The translations under genes and the position numbers were made by a program. A stretch of DNA of 64,000 bases, taken from a virus. The stretch is from the IMG/VR virus record IMGVR_UViG_3300043331_000441, positions 32,001 to 96,000 of that record. One strand, 5' to 3'. The notes beneath the pieces were generated by a model. The model worked only from the letters and a program-made list of their open reading frames with translations. It was not told the origin of the DNA and did not search any database. Below are positions 10,484-30,310 of the stretch, one piece after another (the first letter of the stretch is position 1; each line of letters begins with the position of its first letter).

Positions 10484-10678
10484 ATGAGGTTTAGTTTCAA
10501 CCACCTCGTCTACGAGGTGCCCGACGACGCAGGCATCAGCATCGAGGTCGTTGTTGATGACGAGCACGCCGATTACAACTTCGTGAAGGACGGCGATCAC
10601 ATCCCCATGCTCGGGGGAATCGACGAGGAAGGAAACCCGGTCGAATCATGGGAGGACGTCGGGATTCGGCGGCTTTGA
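10484..10678 (+). CDS. hypothetical protein
   Basis: AAGGAGAAC RBS. Confidence 0.7.
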   Translation: MRFSFNHLVYEVPDDAGISIEVVVDDEHADYNFVKDGDHIPMLGGIDEEGNPVESWEDVGIRRL

Positions 10679-10688
10679 AAGGAGAATA

Positions 10689-10985
10689 TTGGACTCAATG
10701 AGACTCGGTGCGGTGGCAGCAAGCGTTAAGCTCGGCCGCAGAGTCACCTTTCAGGCCTACGGCAATTCGATGAGGCCGCTTATCAAAAGTAACGAGATCG
10801 TGACTGTGCGTCCATTGCTCGTCCCACCGGAGCGGGGCGACGTCGTCCTCGCGCGCGTCAATGGGCACTGGTATCTCCACCTCGTCAGCGCGACGCGCCC
10901 AGGCCAGGTACAGATCTCCAACAACCATGGCCACGTGAATGGCTGGACATCGCTCAAGAATGTCGTTGGGATCCTCGAACGATGA
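10689..10985 (+). CDS. stand-alone S24/S26 peptidase-like domain
   Basis: GNSMRP (catalytic Ser), GDVVLARV...YLHLV; AAAGGAG RBS with TTG start. Confidence 0.7.
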   Translation: MDSMRLGAVAASVKLGRRVTFQAYGNSMRPLIKSNEIVTVRPLLVPPERGDVVLARVNGHWYLHLVSATRPGQVQISNNHGHVNGWTSLKNVVGILER

Positions 10986-11446
10986 CACGCGAGGAATCAC
11001 TCACGATCGTCGAAATGATCATCTCGGGCTGGCCTGATGCGAAGCCACTCGACCGCGACGAAATCGCAATGTACGCGCGTTCGATCCAGGACCTCGACGC
11101 GGAGCTGGCGACGCACGCGGTGCTCAAGGCACACAAGGAATCTCGGTTCCGCCCCGGGCCGCCTGAACTACGCGAGCGCGTACGCGCCGAACGCCGCAGC
11201 CTTGCCGCAGAGCTGCCGCCGATCGAGCCAACCACGGGGCGCCCCCTGCCGATGTGGGTCAAGCGCTGGATCTGTGCGCGCTTGCTCTACAAACGCTTCG
11301 GCAAGGAGCAGGACTTACGACGATTTCCCGAACAGGGGGACTTCGGCGATCTCACCCAGGAGGTGATGCCAGAGGGGGTATGGACGGAAGAGGCAGAAAG
11401 CGTCGGGGAGAAAGAATTCCACGACGCGTTCCGTAGAATGTTCTGA
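10982..11446 (+). CDS. replicative helicase loader/inhibitor-like protein (SPP1 G39P-like N-terminus)
   Basis: MTREE..I..II..WP...MY..SIQDLD...AV..HKESRFRP.PPELRE pattern. Confidence 0.55.
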   Translation: MTREESLTIVEMIISGWPDAKPLDRDEIAMYARSIQDLDAELATHAVLKAHKESRFRPGPPELRERVRAERRSLAAELPPIEPTTGRPLPMWVKRWICARLLYKRFGKEQDLRRFPEQGDFGDLTQEVMPEGVWTEEAESVGEKEFHDAFRRMF

Positions 11447-11465
11447 AAACTCAAAGGAGAACGAC

Positions 11466-12305
11466 ATGAAGAAGTTCCTCGTACTGCTCGCGCTAGCAGC
11501 GTGCGCAGTCATCGGCGTCGTCGCCGGAGTCGCATCCGGTGGCGGCAACCCGCACGGCGACAAGGTGACGATCTGTCACGCCGCCGGTCGGGAGGGCACG
11601 ACGCACTACGAGACACTGACGATCGGCTACCAGGCCGTGTACGGGCCAGCGGGCCACTTCTACGAGAACGGCACGCCGCGCGCCGGGCACGAGCAGGATT
11701 ACCTCGGACCGTGCAAGGGAGACACGACAGACACAACGCCGACAGACACAACCCCGACCGATACCACGCCAACGGATACGACCCCGACAACGCCCACTGA
11801 AACGACGCCCACGACACCGACTACCCCGACCACGCCGTCAAGTCCGACCGGCGCGGCCACGGTGATCTGTGACAACGGCGTCTACAAGGTGAGTGGCACT
11901 GTCGATGGACAGGCAGCAGACAGCGTGCAGCCCGCGACGATCCCCGGCTCGACGAAGGGTACGGTCGAAGTGATCGTCACGCGCGGTGACACGTCAGTAC
12001 GGACAAGCGTGACAGTCAATGGCGACTGTGGGGCGCCCCCAACGACGGCGACAACGCCGACGACAGCGGCAACCACGACCGCGACGACGCCCACGACAAC
12101 CACGACGCCGCCTACGGCAACGACGCCCGCCAAGCCGTCCACGCCGAAGACGGTCAAGCCACCGAAGCAGAAGACGACCTCGGTGAAGAAGGCGGTCAAG
12201 AAGCAGCCGAAGCTGACCGGTAACCCGAAGGTCGATAAGTGCAAGGACCTCGGGAACGGGACGATGCGCTGCAAGGGCGTCGTTGTCACCCAGGGCAGCG
12301 GTTGA
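11466..12305 (+). CDS. secreted Thr/Pro-rich protein with KVTICH...H..D..GPC domain
   Basis: Signal peptide, KVTICHAAG motif, two T/P-rich linkers, basic Cys-containing C-terminus. Confidence 0.8.
   Translation: MKKFLVLLALAACAVIGVVAGVASGGGNPHGDKVTICHAAGREGTTHYETLTIGYQAVYGPAGHFYENGTPRAGHEQDYLGPCKGDTTDTTPTDTTPTDTTPTDTTPTTPTETTPTTPTTPTTPSSPTGAATVICDNGVYKVSGTVDGQAADSVQPATIPGSTKGTVEVIVTRGDTSVRTSVTVNGDCGAPPTTATTPTTAATTTATTPTTTTTPPTATTPAKPSTPKTVKPPKQKTTSVKKAVKKQPKLTGNPKVDKCKDLGNGTMRCKGVVVTQGSG
11720..11840 (+). repeat. in-frame TDTTP/TPT tandem repeats
   Basis: DTTDTTPTDTTPTDTTPTDTTPTTPTETTPTTPTTPTTP. Confidence 0.85.
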
Positions 12306-12496
12306 TGGTCGTACATGGAAAGGGGGCGGCGCAAGCCGCCCCCAACCAACGCCAACGCCTCGCCGTGTGGTGGTGGGGCCTGAGCGACGTTGAGCGCAAC
12401 CGCTACCGCAAACGATTCATGAGTGCGGTCAAGAAGAACCGACGCTTCCGCACTTCGGTGTATCGCCTACTCGCCAGAGAGGAGAACAAGCCGTGA
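12305..12496 (+). CDS. small basic protein
   Basis: TGATG coupling. Confidence 0.55.
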   Translation: MVVHGKGAAQAAPNQRQRLAVWWWGLSDVERNRYRKRFMSAVKKNRRFRTSVYRLLAREENKP

Positions 12497-13248
12497 CGAA
12501 CACGAAATCATCAGATGAGATTGACCGCATTGCGCGATCATTCCACGAGGCCTACGAACGCCTCGCGCCCGAACACGGTTACGCAACGCGCCGCGAGTCA
12601 GCCGTGCCGTGGGATCAGGTACCGGAGAACAACAAGAAGCTGATGCGCGCTGTCGTAGCCGAGATAATTCCCGCCGAAGTGGTGGCTCTCCGCGCCGAAC
12701 TCGCAGAAGCCCACGAGACGCGAGAACTGGCGATCCAGAACGGGGCGCACAACGTGGACGTGCTGCATCAGCAACTCGTTCGCGAGCGTGCTGCGCGGGA
12801 AGCAGCCGAACGGGAACGAGACGAGTACCGCGAGGCCGCACAGAACTGGGAGCAGTCTGCACTCGTGGCCGCTGAGAAGCGGTGGGCTGCCGAACGGGAA
12901 CGAGAAGCGTGGCGCGACTGGATCGACAAGCCCCACAAGGACGACCGCTGGCGGGCCATCTTGCCCCTGCTCCCGCCCGAGTACCAAGGGATCGACAACC
13001 CCGTCGAGCGCCTGATCGAGCGTGCGGAGGCTGCCGAGGCCAGGGAGAAGCATCTAGGGACGCTGTTGCAGCGTGTGGCTGACTCCAAATGTCTCTGCGG
13101 CGGGGAATGGCACTGGACTGGCGTACAAACCCGCTGCACCGGATGCGACCGGGTAAAGGGTTACGGCACCGCTCCGAGGGATGCCGAGGTCATCCGTGCT
13201 GCTCTTGGTTCCGCCGCTGCCGCCGACACCACGGAGGACACGGCATGA
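12493..13248 (+). CDS. modular coiled-coil repeat protein 1
   Basis: GAGGAGAAC RBS; VVALRAELAEA, ERAAREAAERERD, RAEAAEARE and ALGSAAAAD linkers. Confidence 0.8.
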   Translation: MTNTKSSDEIDRIARSFHEAYERLAPEHGYATRRESAVPWDQVPENNKKLMRAVVAEIIPAEVVALRAELAEAHETRELAIQNGAHNVDVLHQQLVRERAAREAAERERDEYREAAQNWEQSALVAAEKRWAAEREREAWRDWIDKPHKDDRWRAILPLLPPEYQGIDNPVERLIERAEAAEAREKHLGTLLQRVADSKCLCGGEWHWTGVQTRCTGCDRVKGYGTAPRDAEVIRAALGSAAAADTTEDTA

Positions 13249-14834
13249 GCAACCCCATCGACGTGCTGCGCGAGGAGCGCGACCGCGAGCGTGCCGCCAG
13301 GGAAGCAGCCGAGGAACGCGCCAGCGTTGCCGAACGGGAACGAGACGAGGGCGTCTCCTACTGGCGAGGCAAGGCTGCCTACTTCGAGCGGCGTGAGAAG
13401 CTGGTCCGCGAGGCTGCCGAGGCCGAGGTGGTGGCTCTCCGCGCCGAACTCGCAGAGGCCAAGACAAACCAGTTCCCGGAGATAGACGAGTCCCTGTTGC
13501 CTGATTCGGTGAGTGGCGCTTCGTGGGACCCTGCGACGCTAACCGCGCTCGCGGAGGCGCATTGCCGCCATGCATGGGATCACAACATGGAAGTCAAGGC
13601 GTGGGTGGTGCTAACGCTGCTTGGCGAGCGTGCCGCCAGGGAAGCAGCCGAACGGGAACGAGAGGAGATGTTGCTCAACGAGGCTGAGGCGCGGCGGGCG
13701 GCAACTCTGGATCGCGAGCGTGCGGAAGCGGCCGAGGCCGACGCGAAACAACTACGGGAGGCGCTGGAACATATCCCCCGGTGCGGCAACTGCATGTCGG
13801 GCCGGACATGGGCCTGCGAGACGTACCAGGGCGCTCTCGGTTCCGCCGCTGCCGCCGACAAGCTCGACTCGTGCCCGCATTGCGGACTCAAAGGCAAGCC
13901 CTTCTGCTGGTGCGGCGAACACGCGCCCGTTCGTGAGGCTGCCGCCCGCGCCGAACTCGCAGAAGCCAACGCGCGAGCTGACAAGTGGCTCGCACGCTAC
14001 GAGGCAGAGCGAGATGACCGCGCGCGCGAGCGTGCCGCCAGGGAAGCAGCCGAACGGGAACGCCGCGATCTGGAGCAGCGCATGGACGACGAGATCGTCG
14101 CGCACGGCAAGACGGAGGAGCGTGCGGAAGCAGCCGAACGGGAACGGGACGAGTTGCTGGACGAGCGGTGGCGGTACGTGCAGGCGGTGGAGGCTGCCGA
14201 GGCGGACAACCAGCGGCTCCGGGACGCGCTGGTGCGCAAAGAGTCGGATGACCGCGAGTTCTGCAAGGGCGGCACGGAGACGTGTGAGCGCTGCGTCGGC
14301 TCATGCGGCATCGAGGAATCGTGGGACGACATCAAGCCGACGGCGATCGTCCAGGCGGTCGGCGGCGTGATCGAGGACGCCTATAGCCGGGTGAACCGCC
14401 CCGGCCCTGGCTCGTTCTCCGTCGATGGCGCGAAGTACGTGCTCGCAGTTGAGGCCAGAGCGGAGGCTGCCGAACGGGAACGAGACGCACTACGCGGCGA
14501 ACTAGAGCAGGCGTATGACTGCTGTGCGAGACCTTCCGGTACCTGCTTTGACCCGTCTGTTCTCACAAAGGTTGGGAGCGCGGATCCGAGTGCCGCCGAC
14601 GTGGACGGGGCCGACAAGCCCGATGTGGCCTCTGGCGGTCATCACGAGTCGGTGGGAGAGCGCCAGGGTAGGCAACCCGCGCTCCCGACACAACTGCTTG
14701 TAGACGCTGCCGGATTCGTCTGGCGCGACTTCGGCGAGGGCTACCTCTCCGGTTGCCCGTTCAATCCTGACAACGAGCCGCTGCCTGAGCCGATCACAGC
14801 CTACGTGAGAGCGGAGGCTGCCGAGGCCAGGGAG
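12679..14834 (+). repeat. dispersed in-frame direct repeat families (14-40 bp)
   Basis: GCCGAACGGGAACG exact at 12805, 12889, 13329, 13647, 14049, 14133, 14469 (and 29139); GTGGTGGCTCTCCGCGCCGAACTCGCAGA at 12679 and 13428; GCTCT[TC]GGTTCCGCCGCTGCCGCCGAC at 13201 and 13833. Confidence 0.95.
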
Positions 14835-15002
14835 CAACAGCTACGGGTCGACCGGCACGAAGCATGGGAGGCGCTCGAAGACATCCTCATGTGCGAGGGC
14901 GACTCGTTCACCGAGGTTGCAGAGCGGGCACGCCGAGGACTTGCCCGCAAGTGGGCCGCTCTCGCTTCCGGCCAGCCCGCCGACAGCCAGGAGGGGGCAT
15001 GA
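13245..15002 (+). CDS. modular coiled-coil repeat protein 2 with several Cys-rich inserts
   Basis: GGAGG RBS before ATG 13245; same linker repeats; CxxC modules between them. Confidence 0.8.
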   Translation: MSNPIDVLREERDRERAAREAAEERASVAERERDEGVSYWRGKAAYFERREKLVREAAEAEVVALRAELAEAKTNQFPEIDESLLPDSVSGASWDPATLTALAEAHCRHAWDHNMEVKAWVVLTLLGERAAREAAEREREEMLLNEAEARRAATLDRERAEAAEADAKQLREALEHIPRCGNCMSGRTWACETYQGALGSAAAADKLDSCPHCGLKGKPFCWCGEHAPVREAAARAELAEANARADKWLARYEAERDDRARERAAREAAERERRDLEQRMDDEIVAHGKTEERAEAAERERDELLDERWRYVQAVEAAEADNQRLRDALVRKESDDREFCKGGTETCERCVGSCGIEESWDDIKPTAIVQAVGGVIEDAYSRVNRPGPGSFSVDGAKYVLAVEARAEAAERERDALRGELEQAYDCCARPSGTCFDPSVLTKVGSADPSAADVDGADKPDVASGGHHESVGERQGRQPALPTQLLVDAAGFVWRDFGEGYLSGCPFNPDNEPLPEPITAYVRAEAAEAREQQLRVDRHEAWEALEDILMCEGDSFTEVAERARRGLARKWAALASGQPADSQEGA

Positions 15003-15202
15003 CGACGATCCGCGTGCGGGAACCAAGCAACGATGGGCGCCTAACCATCGAGTGGTACGCGGTCATGGGCGACGGCGCGTGGATGCTGCTCGACGGCGGA
15101 AACATCGTATCCATCCATGACTGGAAGTGGCAGGCACGACTCGCCCGACGACTGCTGCTCAGACAGCGCCAGCCCACCGACATCCAGGAGAACCCGGCAT
15201 GA
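14999..15202 (+). CDS. hypothetical protein
   Basis: GGAGG RBS, ATGA overlap. Confidence 0.65.
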   Translation: MTTIRVREPSNDGRLTIEWYAVMGDGAWMLLDGGNIVSIHDWKWQARLARRLLLRQRQPTDIQENPA

Positions 15203-15465
15203 CCTCGCCGCGGAATCGTTCCGCTGTTTGTACGCCGAGCGATGATCCGGTGTACGAGCGCTGCGGCACTTGTCTGGTCAGTTCACCGCTTGACGGTCAG
15301 TTGTACTGCGAGCGGCCAGCGGGTCACCGTGGCCCGCATCGTCTGAGCAAGGAAGACGAACGACGCTCCTCCCAGTTCTGGGCGAGGTGGATGCGCCGTG
15401 CGCTCGCCCGCGCGGAGGCCCGTGATGATGATCCCATCGGCACGGTCGAGGAGCGCCATGCCTGA
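15199..15465 (+). CDS. Cys/His small protein
   Basis: AGGAGAAC RBS; RCGTC...YCERPAGHRGPH. Confidence 0.65.
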   Translation: MTSPRNRSAVCTPSDDPVYERCGTCLVSSPLDGQLYCERPAGHRGPHRLSKEDERRSSQFWARWMRRALARAEARDDDPIGTVEERHA

Positions 15466-15658
15466 CCGTTCTGCTGCCGAAACACTCGGCACCGAGCAGC
15501 GCTGCTCGCACGTCGCGCTAGGTGACATAGAGAGCCGCTGCGAGCGCGAACACGGACACGGCGGGGCGCATCACTGCGCGGTCGATTCGGACCCGCATTG
15601 GAGGTACGTCATCTCGTGGTGGCCCAAGGACGCCCGCGCGGAGGCCCGTGATGCCTAG
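15458..15658 (+). CDS. Cys/His small protein
   Basis: GAGGAG RBS; RCSH...RCEREHGHGGAHH, similar to the preceding ORF. Confidence 0.65.
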   Translation: MPDRSAAETLGTEQRCSHVALGDIESRCEREHGHGGAHHCAVDSDPHWRYVISWWPKDARAEARDA

Positions 15659-15890
15659 CGCGTGCCCGAAGTGCGGCACCCCCGGCGCTGAATCCTTAAC
15701 GCATGTCTGCGTCGTGCCTGACCGTCCTGCTGCCGGTGCGCCCGCCTGCCCCGATTGCGGGCTTAGTGGCCGCTTCCGCCCTTCTCGGCTCCGTCCTCCG
15801 CTCTGGCATTGCGACGGGTGTGCCCGTGACTTCCCGCCCCCTTCCGCTGCCGGTGCGCCAACCACCGAGCCGACGAGCGAGGCGCGATGA
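15651..15890 (+). CDS. Zn-ribbon small protein
   Basis: CPKC, CPDC, CDGC; GGAGG RBS. Confidence 0.6.
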   Translation: MPSACPKCGTPGAESLTHVCVVPDRPAAGAPACPDCGLSGRFRPSRLRPPLWHCDGCARDFPPPSAAGAPTTEPTSEAR

Positions 15891-16054
15891 CGATCGAAGT
15901 GGTCGGCAGGCGCTCGGCGCTCCAGTACGCGGTGGACGCCAATGGCAACTGGTGGTGGAAGCACGATTTCAGCAAGCGGTGGCGTCCTGCCGTTTGCGTC
16001 AGGTCGATCCCGCACGAGATCCTCGCTCTCGCCGCTGCCGGGGTGTCGTCGTGA
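15887..16054 (+). CDS. small hypothetical protein (55 aa)
   Basis: ATGA and GTGA overlaps on both sides. Confidence 0.5.
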   Translation: MTIEVVGRRSALQYAVDANGNWWWKHDFSKRWRPAVCVRSIPHEILALAAAGVSS

Positions 16055-16419
16055 CCGGACGTCGGCTAAGAATCATCGTCTGCGGAAGTCGCAACTGGCA
16101 CGACCAACAACGAATCGCCGACCGCCTCGGCCACGTACCGGCCGACGCCACCATCGTCCACGGAGGCGCCCGCGGTGCCGACAGCATTGCTGGTGAAGAA
16201 GCGGCCAGACTCGGTCTTTTGGTCGAACCGCATTATGCCAACTGGGAGCGGTATGGACGCGCCGCGGGGCCGATTCGCAATCGCGAGATGGCCGACGCCG
16301 GTGCCGATCTTTGCATCGCCTTCCTTCAAGAAACACCTGACGCTCCGTCTCGCGGCACTCGTAATATGATCGACCAGGCGCGCGAACGAGGTATTCCAGT
16401 GGAGGTCATCGAGGCTTGA
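16051..16419 (+). CDS. SLOG superfamily protein (DUF2493/YspA-like)
   Basis: IIVCGSRNW...IVHGGARGAD...GRAAGPIRNREM...SRGTRNMI. Confidence 0.88.
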   Translation: MTGRRLRIIVCGSRNWHDQQRIADRLGHVPADATIVHGGARGADSIAGEEAARLGLLVEPHYANWERYGRAAGPIRNREMADAGADLCIAFLQETPDAPSRGTRNMIDQARERGIPVEVIEA

Positions 16420-17678
16420 GGCAATGCCCGAAGTGCGGCGATCCTATGGTCCAGTGGGGTCACGGCAGGATGGAACGCTGGCGTTGCCCGGCATGCCACC
16501 GGAAGCGGCGCAAGCAGTATCACGGCAAAGTCGAAATCATCGAGCAACCGGGATCACATCCGATGCCTGACGCGTCGGTGTTTGTGGACGATCACGATTT
16601 CAAGCTCTATATGGGCAACTGCCTCGACGTATTAGGCACGTTGCCCAGCGAGTCCGTCGATTGCGTGGTTACCAGTCCGCCGTATTGGGGGCTTCGTGAT
16701 TACCGAGCCGAAGGCCAGCTCGGCATGGAATCCACGCCAGAAGAGTTCGTCCAAAACATGACGTCTGTCTTTAGCGAAGCCCGGCGCATCCTTACTCCAC
16801 ACGGCACTTGCTGGGTTAATCTCGGTGATTCGTATACAAGTGGTGGCCGCACCTGGCGAGCACCGGATGCCAAGGACGCCTCAGGCGCACCACGAACAAT
16901 TGGTTCCCGCCCCGAAACTCCGCCAGGACTAAAGCCAAAAGATTTAGTTGGTATCCCCTGGCGCGTTGCTTTCGCGCTGCAGAACGATGGTTGGTGGCTT
17001 CGTAGCGACATTATTTGGTCGAAGGCCAACCCTATGCCAGAATCTGTTCTCGATCGTCCAACACGCTCCCACGAGTACATCTTCCTTCTTACGAAGCAAG
17101 CCCACTACTGGTGGGATATTGAGGCTGTGCGTGAACCGCACAATCCGGATAACCGCAGAATCACAACAGTGCAGGCCGGAGAAGGATCAATCCAACACCG
17201 TGACGGCGAACGCTGGCCAAACAGCGGTCGCAACATACGCTCGGTCTGGTCAATTCCCGCGCAACCGTATCCAGGCGCACACTTCGCAACCTTCCCGGAA
17301 GAACTCGCGCGACGCGCGATTGTCGCCGGATGCCCGCTCAAGGTTTGTCGTGAGTGTGGGAAACCATCCGAACGAATCGTTGAGCGCGACCGTGAAGATG
17401 TAGAGGGGTGGGCGCCCGTGCGCAAGCTAGAACACTCACAAGGCGCGGCCGAACAAGGCAACGGGCGCTTCGGCAATCCGCTTGTCACAACACTCGGCTG
17501 GACCGACTGTGGGCATAACAACTGGAGAAGCGGCATAGTCCTTGATCCGTTCATGGGCAGCGGCACGGTTGCCAAGGTTGCGCGCGACCATCAGCGCCAT
17601 GCTGTCGGCATCGAGTTGAACCCAGAGTATTGCCGCATGATCGCAGAGCGCCTGCAGCAGCTTTCTCTACTTGCCTAA
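16416..17678 (+). CDS. amino-DNA methyltransferase, class beta (N4-C/N6-A), with Zn-ribbon insert (alternative start 16563)
   Basis: VVTSPPYW motif IV precedes LDPFMGSGT motif I; HFATFPEEL. Confidence 0.93.
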   Translation: MRQCPKCGDPMVQWGHGRMERWRCPACHRKRRKQYHGKVEIIEQPGSHPMPDASVFVDDHDFKLYMGNCLDVLGTLPSESVDCVVTSPPYWGLRDYRAEGQLGMESTPEEFVQNMTSVFSEARRILTPHGTCWVNLGDSYTSGGRTWRAPDAKDASGAPRTIGSRPETPPGLKPKDLVGIPWRVAFALQNDGWWLRSDIIWSKANPMPESVLDRPTRSHEYIFLLTKQAHYWWDIEAVREPHNPDNRRITTVQAGEGSIQHRDGERWPNSGRNIRSVWSIPAQPYPGAHFATFPEELARRAIVAGCPLKVCRECGKPSERIVERDREDVEGWAPVRKLEHSQGAAEQGNGRFGNPLVTTLGWTDCGHNNWRSGIVLDPFMGSGTVAKVARDHQRHAVGIELNPEYCRMIAERLQQLSLLA

Positions 17679-28946: not shown

Positions 28947-29408
28947 GTGACCCGCCCGGACCCCGCCGACATCGACCACGCCCTCGCTGCGCGGAAGAAA
29001 GGGCTTGGCCTCACCAGGGCCGAGGCCTGGAGGCTTGCTGACGAGGTGGTGGCCCTCCGCGCCGAACTCGCAGAAGCCATCGAGCAGCGCAACGAATGGG
29101 CCGAGCGCGTCGAGGTCGTGCGTGCCGCCAGGGAAGCAGCCGAACGGGAACGAGACGGCTACAAGCAGACGGCCAACAGCAACCACTGGCGTGCGGAGGC
29201 TGCCGAAACCGAGCTGCGCGAGCTGCGTCTCGTAGTCGCTCGGCAGTTGACGCCACTCGATGTTGCCGTGACACACATCGACATCCTGCGCCGAAAAAGC
29301 GATGACTACACCCCACGGGAACGGGACAACGTCGCGATCATCGTCGAGTCGCACGCCGAGGAAGCACGGAAGGCGTTGTTCGATGCGCTTCGTGCGGAAG
29401 AGACGTGA
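28947..29408 (+). CDS. modular coiled-coil repeat protein 3
   Basis: GGAGG RBS before GTG; carries the same DNA repeats as 12493-15002. Confidence 0.8.
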   Translation: MTRPDPADIDHALAARKKGLGLTRAEAWRLADEVVALRAELAEAIEQRNEWAERVEVVRAAREAAERERDGYKQTANSNHWRAEAAETELRELRLVVARQLTPLDVAVTHIDILRRKSDDYTPRERDNVAIIVESHAEEARKALFDALRAEET

Positions 29409-29845: not shown

Positions 29846-30017
29846 CGGCCGCGTCTGGAACGTCCTCGGCGACCCCGAAGACATCTGGAAACGGGTTATC
29901 CAGATACCGACCAACGGGTCAACGACCCACTGGGTCGAGTTGACGACGCTCGACGGCTATGTCGTCCGCATCCGCAAGGATCATGTCACTACAGTGGCGG
30001 ATGTTGGTGCGGCATGA
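29805..30017 (+). CDS. hypothetical protein
   Basis: AAAGGAGAAC RBS. Confidence 0.7.
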   Translation: MAEETKMTKLWTRDGRVWNVLGDPEDIWKRVIQIPTNGSTTHWVELTTLDGYVVRIRKDHVTTVADVGAA

Positions 30018-30310
30018 GGGAACTAAGTCAGTATGAACTGGACAGCCTGCTTGGTGCCTACTTCATCTGCCCGTTCTGCAAGTCAGAGGAGTGGTATAAG
30101 GGCGGCGAAGGTGGCATGTCGCAGAACGTCTTCTGCGCTAACGAGGAGTGCGGCGCTGGCTTCAACGTGATGGGCCCCAAGCCGGTCAACCTCGGCGGCC
30201 AACTGATCCAGCCACCCAAGGGTGGCGACCCTGGCCCGCTGGAACCAGCACCTGTCAAACTGGACGCCCCGCCCACGCAGCTTCCCTGGTGGAAAAGGTT
30301 GTTCACATGA
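30014..30310 (+). CDS. small Zn-finger protein (paralogue of 1521..1838)
   Basis: CPFC...CANEECGAGFNVMGPKPVN...LPWWKRLF. Confidence 0.8.
   Translation: MRELSQYELDSLLGAYFICPFCKSEEWYKGGEGGMSQNVFCANEECGAGFNVMGPKPVNLGGQLIQPPKGGDPGPLEPAPVKLDAPPTQLPWWKRLFT

Follow-up and report, generated by a model that had tools for sequence, protein, structure and literature searches.

Early regions of phage genomes are rich in small proteins whose function is unknown; where such proteins have been studied, many have proved to be counter-defence factors. At the gene junctions of lambdoid phages, conserved boundary (linker) sequences are reportedly found, as formulated in the modular theory of Susskind and Botstein, and in the tail-fibre genes 37 and 38 of T-even phages the 'His boxes' are said to have been described by Tetart et al. 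in 1998 as crossover points at which adhesin segments are swapped. Ea22 is an early, non-essential phage protein, which is oligomeric and pro-lysogenic and whose genes are mosaic in Stx phages; its variants combine a common coiled-coil region with swapped, unrelated end domains (PMC10834534). Here we describe a locus of similar design in an uncultured soil phage, located at positions 12493-15002 of a window of 64,000 nucleotides (nt), which corresponds to bases 32001-96000 of the 130,556-bp IMG/VR virus record IMGVR_UViG_3300043331_000441 (completeness rating 92%). In this stretch, four families of repeats, termed joints L1 to L4 in the following, alternate in frame with dissimilar protein modules. 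We consider it likely that homologous recombination at these coil-coding joints and at gene-junction cassettes shuffles modules on a dimeric rod.

The original prediction had treated the stretch as a single locus of uniform repeats. The repeats are present, but they are distributed over two genes, which are linked by an ATGA overlap and which, like all joints and modules described below, lie on the plus strand. Gene A (12493-13248, 251 residues) is an open reading frame (ORF) with a GTG start and GAGGAG 8 nt before it, and gene B (13245-15002, 585 residues) begins with an ATG that overlaps the TGA of gene A and follows GGAGG. A third paralogue, gene C (28947-29408, 153 residues), has a GTG start after GGAGG. 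The product of gene A comprises a RyR-like repeat, L1, a 24-residue helical insert, L2, a 68-residue insert, L3, a Cys knuckle and the L4 tail, and that of gene C comprises L1, L2 and L3 followed by a widespread C-terminal module (RQLTPLDV...); its N-terminus is common to the metagenome proteins P0004, P0066 and P0071. Gene B can be read as a series of about four units with this motif grammar, i.e. as several small genes that were putatively fused in frame. When its product was used in an exhaustive phmmer search, 103 proteins were retrieved, none of which matched over the full length and each of which covered one segment. At residue 197 of gene B an internal copy of L4, apparently a former tail, is followed by a CPHC module, and at residue 384 a piece is found (NRPGPGSFSVDG...) that corresponds to the N-terminus of the stand-alone protein P0082.

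We could confirm all four motif families, which are in the coding frame and in one orientation throughout. L1 (EVVALRAELAEA; VVALRAELAEA) is located at 12676-12711, 13425-13460 and 29043-29078, with a degenerate copy at 13941-13967, and its copies in genes A and B share an exact run of 29 nt. L2 (ERAAREAAERERD) is located at 12784-12822, 13287-13316, 13626-13664, 14028-14066 and 29118-29156, with exact runs of 28-37 nt among the copies in genes B and C; short AERER(D/E) copies of it lie at 12886-12906, 13326-13346, 14130-14150 and 14466-14486. L3 (RAEAAEA) is found at 13021-13041, 13719-13739, 14121-14141, 14187-14207 (VEAAEAD), 14457-14477, 14808-14828 and 29190-29210; this family exists as predicted, but it is looser than the others, with a codon identity of 64%. 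The L4 tail with its gene-junction cassette (ALGSAAAAD...) ends gene A (13201-13248), and further copies are internal (13833-13859) and terminal (14958-15002) in gene B. The 14-mer GCCGAACGGGAACG indeed occurs eight times in the window, compared with an expectation of 0.01 from shuffles; the stretch itself contains seven of these copies, and the eighth is at 29139 in gene C. An exact repeat that had been reported with 36 bp is real and measures 37 bp (13624-13660 and 14026-14062), which makes it the longest exact repeat. When the genome was compared with itself, the joints were the main short repeat family of high identity, accounting for 19 of 59 repeat pairs. Identity ends abruptly at the edges of the joints, and exact runs of 20-37 nt with unrelated flanks mean that DNA is shared at the borders of the modules.

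It had also been claimed that the repeats are conserved at the DNA level, and the codons bear this out. Between joint copies, 257 of 328 codon pairs encoding the same residue are identical (78%), compared with 34% expected from the codon usage of 117 long ORFs outside genes A, B and C. L2 keeps four different Arg codons (CGT, AGG, CGG and CGA) across its copies, and AERE elsewhere in the genome is encoded by other codons. From the codon identity and the retained Arg codons we conclude that the joint copies, as judged from their sequences, share descent or are homogenised and are not convergent. The changes between copies comprise 16 synonymous and 5 replacing ones, and this excess of synonymous differences fits selection on the peptide; conservation at the DNA level and at the protein level both apply. 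Conservation as DNA is also what would be seen if the repeats were DNA or RNA signals embedded in coding sequence, such as origin iterons, as in the lambda O gene, or regulator sites, and a helicase-loader-like gene (10982-11446) is located 1.5 kb upstream of the locus. However, the copies extend over 2.3 kb with one more at a distance of 14 kb, every copy is in the coding frame and none on the opposite strand, the relatives keep the peptides, and the copies differ at synonymous sites, which renders a signal function extremely improbable as the explanation of the repeats.

The order L1, L2, L3 and L4 tail is kept in ten proteins, i.e. those of genes A, B and C and seven metagenome relatives (P0003, P0004, P0053, P0066, P0071, P0101 and P0120). 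The slots between the joints are filled with seven kinds of content in nine instances (L1-L2), seven in seven (L2-L3) and seven in eight (L3-L4), and the piece NGAHNVD(V/I)LH occupies the L1-L2 slot in gene A and the L2-L3 slot in P0071. P0003 consists of residues 1-96 of gene A, 18 other residues and residues 522-585 of gene B, with 100% identity in the shared parts; the 18 middle residues are found again in P0053. In P0183 and P0120, 193 of 194 and 16 of 16 aligned residues are the same, and the difference between the two proteins is a cassette of 72 residues, which sits between two copies of AALASGQPAD (L4). Among 13 family proteins, blocks with an identity of 80% or more have 55 distinct internal ends, of which 30 are located at most 3 residues from a joint, compared with 15.8 ± 3.3 by chance (joints make up 18% of the residues), and this count was reached in 1 of 5000 shuffles. 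Together with the deletion contigs presented below, the combinations found in relatives, the block ends and the cassette insertion or deletion support the predicted shuffling of modules at the repeats. Orthologues with identical module order and breakpoints away from the repeats were not found.

The same proteins might be viewed as an ordinary paralogous coiled-coil family, in which the joints are kept for their peptide, the inserts are old diverged duplicates and recombination has no real part. This would agree with the mainly synonymous differences between joint copies, which place the peptide under selection, with insert lengths that keep the heptad phase and with a dimer model whose core is formed by the joints (see below). 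An old duplication does not fit a codon identity of 78% and exact runs of 28-37 nt with sharp ends, though, and the inserts vary both in length (13 to 68 residues) and in kind (helical, Cys knuckle, 55-residue domain). Moreover, the same insert is found with different neighbours or in different slots, as is the CPHC module, which occurs in six proteins, and near-identical alleles differ by whole cassettes bounded by joints, with the breakpoints of the deletion contigs inside joints. We therefore regard a mere paralogous family as quite unlikely and favour recombination at the joints.

The exchange points in the relatives coincide with shared sequences at the protein level, and those of two deletion contigs do so at the DNA level. 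The latter were found when Logan contigs of four runs were compared with positions 10500-17500. One contig of run X2 (record 10, 824 nt) matches 12804-13283 and 14025-14368 with 0 mismatches and joins L2 copy 1 to copy 3 in frame, with 29 nt fitting both sides; it lacks 13284-14024, i.e. 741 nt (247 codons), from the segment that L2 copies 1 and 3 bound (13284-14054). In run X3, a contig connects L2 copies 1 and 2 (13284 to 13624), again in frame, and leaves out 339 nt; here 28 nt fit both sides. For Logan contigs k = 31 is used; if this holds here, a repeat of 28-29 nt cannot on its own collapse the assembly graph, and the joints of X2 and X3 would stand in the reads. Two other apparent joints (13461 to 14030 and 13663 to 13020) were rejected as variants, since the letters between their sides are gene C's own inserts and gene C contigs had thus been matched onto gene B. 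Joints with sides of 20-26 nt (13944 to 15177 and 13960 to 14462) were left uncounted, and short pieces of run X7 with 88% identity and many loose ends, which probably derive from other G+C-rich organisms, were left out.

Contigs also bear on the question of whether gene B and some of the relatives could be assembly artefacts, i.e. chimeras of strain variants joined at 30-nt repeats. The record is a metagenome assembly, its repeats are shorter than reads and near small k values, the listed contigs from other runs often end at joints, and 13425-13460, 13967-14025 and 14808-14858 are unspanned among the listed pieces. Against this, contigs from independent runs cover 12433-12826, 12713-13020, 12804-13283, 13181-13422, 13634-13960, 14025-14368 and 14149-14689 across joints and both their flanks with 0 mismatches, so that the order in the window is confirmed across many joints. 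P0066 is collinear with residues 52-237 of gene B through four joints, and the relatives hold cassettes that are absent from this genome and that chimerism cannot create. An artefact of this kind is very unlikely.

The joints appear to form the core of an elongated helical structure. The model of the gene A product, which was built with 52 homologues and has a predicted local distance difference test (pLDDT) score of 83, contains a helix-loop-helix at residues 4-58, a single helix at 61-145 that runs through L1, the insert and L2 with pLDDT above 90, a helix at 170-197 across L3, a small beta knuckle where the Cys motif lies, and a tail helix. In 13 of 14 distinct cases, the inserts of the L1-L2 and L2-L3 slots measure 13, 20 or 55 residues (7n-1) or 24 or 31 residues (7n+3), with P ~2e-5 for these classes after correction for choosing them; a four-residue difference between such length classes is referred to as a 'stutter' in work on coiled coils. 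When two copies of gene A were modelled, the interaction prediction score from aligned errors (ipSAE) was 0.46 compared with 0.00 for the best control; among solved structures, 21 of 30 homodimers and 0 of 23 monomers attained this mark. The homodimer runs had at least 72% of contacts in common, with a partner pLDDT of at least 68. In these models the interface is parallel and in register, with a/d contacts in a 3-4 rhythm over residues 62-143 and a 4-4 step at 76-80-84, within the 24-residue insert. The models thus support a dimeric coiled coil for gene A.

Between the repeats, modules of 20-60 residues without relation to each other had been predicted. They are unrelated, but many of them are simply helical spacers of 13, 20 or 24 residues. 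The predicted Cys-rich pieces were found at 13090-13146, 13782-13817, 13872-13913, 14262-14306 and 14520-14546. The third of these is the CPHC...CWC Cys knuckle after the internal L4 copy, which also follows L4 in P0053, P0066, P0071 and P0074 and occurs without L4 in P0075. Two modules of gene B recur mostly in small proteins. Many stand-alone proteins of 60-140 residues match residues 74-146, and the L1-L2 slot of gene B holds a 55-residue module (FPEIDE...SWDP...CRH.WDH; 13461-13625); a 42-residue module (LLVD..GFVWRDFG..CPFNPDNEP; 14682-14807) represents the commonest match class, mainly consisting of small stand-alone proteins. Residues 99-148 of gene C (29241-29390; RQLTPLDVA.THIDILRRK...ERDNVA.IVE) show 23 invariant columns in an alignment of 17 proteins, whose N-terminal parts are all different, and represent another mini-domain in wide use. 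A further cassette of about 60 residues (YLIER...W...VEHGW) follows different tails in the unrelated proteins P0183 (residues 195-255) and P0178 (C-terminal part) and matches DUF2849 weakly (E 9e-4, below the cut-off).

Searches for named families and for close relatives added little. Pfam and PHROGs assigned no module of A, B or the stand-alone module relatives to a named family, and A and B had no match among GenBank phages in DNA and protein searches. The relatives that were looked up all come from JGI metagenomes and nearly all form singleton clusters at 90% identity. Scans of IMG/VR with B, A, the gene C family and P0183 yielded nothing usable, gene A giving one distant N-domain match (L002); the degenerate L1 pattern had no IMG/VR match, and the degenerate L2 pattern matched 3 unrelated proteins with codons unlike those in this phage. 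A metagenome scan with gene B and a genome-contig scan found none, the degenerate L1 DNA pattern gave 13 chance matches to unrelated proteins, and the ESM Atlas returned one viral cluster at 0.75, which is a lead only.

ALGSAAAAD had been listed as one more repeat. This it is, and it opens a C-terminal tail which contains the Shine-Dalgarno site and the start codon of the next gene. Genes A and B and the next gene (14999-15202) all end with ...GAC-A.C-..G-GAG-...-GCATGA, and the end of the L4 tail serves at once as Shine-Dalgarno site (GGAGG) and as ATGA stop/start overlap with the following gene. By such overlaps a small gene of 67 residues (14999-15202) is chained to gene B, and a gene of 88 residues (15199-15465) is chained to the former. 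The tail of the 67-residue protein (...PTDIQENPA) is of the same type as those of P0066, P0071 and P0120. A second junction cassette is given by an exact 23-nt repeat (15405-15427 and 15631-15653), which encodes the ARAEARD tail of two small Cys/His-rich genes and provides GGAGG and, after it, the GTGATG at which the next gene starts; ARAEARD is also the tail of the metagenome protein P0067. Since the L4 and 23-nt cassettes hold a ribosome-binding site and the next start, the locus is, to judge from these signals, a series of small genes that are coupled in translation and have conserved junctions between them. As in the boundary sequences of lambdoid phages, short conserved DNA lies at module borders with exchanged neighbours, L4 and ARAEARD holding a ribosome-binding site and a start; unlike boundary sequences, most joints here are intragenic and encode a structural part of the protein rather than an intergenic signal.

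One cassette gives a hint at function. Residues 1-60 of gene A (12493-12672) retrieved RyR repeats in 25 of the best 27 Foldseek rows, with a best probability of 1.0 and an E of 0.08. In VIA-align the best 16 rows were all RyR (Z 7.5, rmsd (root-mean-square deviation) 2.7-2.8 Å, 60 residues aligned, 18-25% identity), a Z under 8 not being decisive alone. At the sequence level, PF02026 (RyR) had no match to gene A or to 52 homologues scanned singly at E ≤ 1, and a PDB sequence search with the N-domain profile gave chance rows only. About 60 homologues carry the 50-residue RyR-like piece fused to nucleases or to helix-turn-helix, receiver or LexA domains. In the N-domain of gene A, an H-x-x-aromatic motif is present, with H18 and Y21 invariant or nearly so, and the homodimer model predicts a symmetric pairing of the N-domains with contacts at residues 13-59. 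Phage RyR-domain proteins (RyDEP) have been described in a 2026 preprint as homodimers that cleave or sequester the cyclic ADP-ribose signals of Thoeris, with H75, W78, H100 and D117 as ligand or catalytic residues, and a RyR-repeat protein of B. thetaiotaomicron is also a homodimer (PMC13232231). Gene A resembles RyDEP in the RyR-repeat fold of residues 1-60 and may resemble it in the two-fold pairing that the model predicts, and H18 and Y21 recall H75 and W78; unlike in RyDEP, the RyR-like piece is one cassette of one gene and not the common part of the family, and it lacks a PF02026 match. As a lead, the RyR-like module may thus point to anti-defence, namely against nucleotide-signal defence, for this cassette and not for the family as a whole. 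The original prediction of variable coiled-coil effectors generated by shuffling accordingly stands as far as the shuffling is concerned, and for a role in host takeover or anti-defence it is the RyR-like fold that provides the sole lead.

Taken together, A, B and C would constitute a family of alpha-helical rod proteins in the non-structural arm of a 130-kb soil phage. Their skeleton would consist of an N-terminal module, L1, L2, L3 and the L4 tail, with the joints as the core of a parallel, in-register dimeric coiled coil. The cassettes between them would be exchangeable, being either helical spacers in heptad phase or small globular pieces such as the RyR-like repeat, Cys knuckles and two widespread mini-domains. 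Recombination at the joints, within the genome or between co-infecting relatives, would swap, delete or concatenate cassettes, and gene B would represent such a concatenation of about four units. Cassette exchange would spare frame and coil because the joints, with 28-37 nt of nearly identical DNA, agree in frame and in orientation. We infer that the rod forms dimers and so brings the mini-domains it displays together in pairs, and that the family has host targets.

Several points weigh against this interpretation. The joints having been defined by identity of the peptide, the low number of residue changes is to some extent circular, and conservation at the codon level was shown within this one genome only. 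As the proteins are related, the block-end events, for which cells were counted, are not independent, and the relatives come from short metagenome contigs of low coverage, in which mis-joining at 30-nt repeats is possible. Profiles of RecT, ERF, AAA_24 and RecA had no match in the phage, which does not imply absence of a recombinase. The dimer is a model score and not a measurement, and the model of gene B, folded alone, is poor (pLDDT 56), with the joints still in long helices.

The comparison to Ea22 and Ead proteins made in the original prediction is fair with regard to design, but not with regard to family membership. The locus shares with the lambda Ea22 and Stx variants (PF13935 / IPR025153) a common coiled coil and different cassettes on the same joints; when A and B were searched with hmmscan against Pfam-A, PF13935 included, no family was found at E ≤ 0.1, the sole row at E ≤ 1 for A being Golgin_A5 (0.11). 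Unlike in Ea22, several joints in fixed order lie inside the genes here, up to about four units are found in one gene, spacers keep the heptad phase, and the setting is a soil phage with about 60% G+C. With the T-even genes 37 and 38 the locus has in common that conserved in-frame motifs inside genes act as crossover sites which reassort variable segments; whereas those genes encode host-range proteins of the virion, the proteins here are non-structural and their joints are coiled-coil heptads. A diversity-generating retroelement, whose template and variable repeats would be equally long and differ at adenines, was rejected, as the variable pieces differ in length and have no similarity; a reverse transcriptase was not searched for.

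With respect to the surroundings, the window contains a plus-strand non-structural arm and a minus-strand structural arm, the latter with a head-tail adaptor and an ORF of 1567 residues, the size of a tape-measure protein. The stretch is contained in runs that are metagenomes of soil and rhizosphere. Immediately before the locus, 11466-12305 encodes a secreted Thr/Pro-repeat protein of 279 residues with a signal-peptide-like start and long Thr/Pro repeats, whose DNA has tandem repeats with a period of 15-30; Pfam and PHROG searches with this protein gave no match. Two small genes downstream of the locus, a gene at 15703-16419 encodes a YspA/cpYpsA-type SLOG protein (PF10686, E 2e-14), a domain class tied to nucleotide-signal conflict systems, and it is followed by a DNA methyltransferase gene (16416-17678). 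The G+C content is 65-67% over 12001-16000, compared with about 60% in the adjacent 2-kb bins, which could be due to a composition rich in Ala, Arg and Glu or to a different origin. A promoter and terminator scan of 10800-16500 revealed neither a promoter-like site nor a convincing terminator. Elsewhere on the plus strand of the window, 227 nt at 1524-1748 and 30014-30238 are 81% identical and probably represent a paralogous gene pair, and outside the window the record contains dense repeats of 30-150 nt with 75-90% identity over about 5 kb (G000:C1:98300-103300), which resemble a repetitive fibre or collagen-like gene.

The locus clearly adds a new case to the cut-and-paste evolution that is known for early genes of phages, and it contributes intragenic joints in fixed order, cassettes in heptad phase, a fusion of 585 residues and in-frame deletion forms in natural samples, all in an uncultured soil phage. 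It displays a clean grammar of constant coiled-coil joints, fixed order and quantised cassette lengths, and it carries mosaicism of the Ea22 type beyond enterobacterial phages into an unrelated phage group. The joints offer natural borders for cutting such proteins into testable mini-domains, and the forms found here indicate that recombination can fuse, split and reassort mini-domains in frame in natural populations. Should the RyR-like cassette prove to bind cyclic ADP-ribose signals, its fold would already have a dimeriser at hand in the rod. A further-reaching proposal, which we regard as doubtful, is that selection for exchange itself keeps the joints identical in DNA and that the rod is a phage 'display scaffold' whose phase-preserving cassettes, small binding or enzyme domains directed at host defences with the RyR-like repeat as an example, are continually reassorted in soil phage populations. 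If true, such a scaffold would provide the phage with a combinatorial counter-defence repertoire, following a logic like that of pilin or surface-antigen cassette systems.

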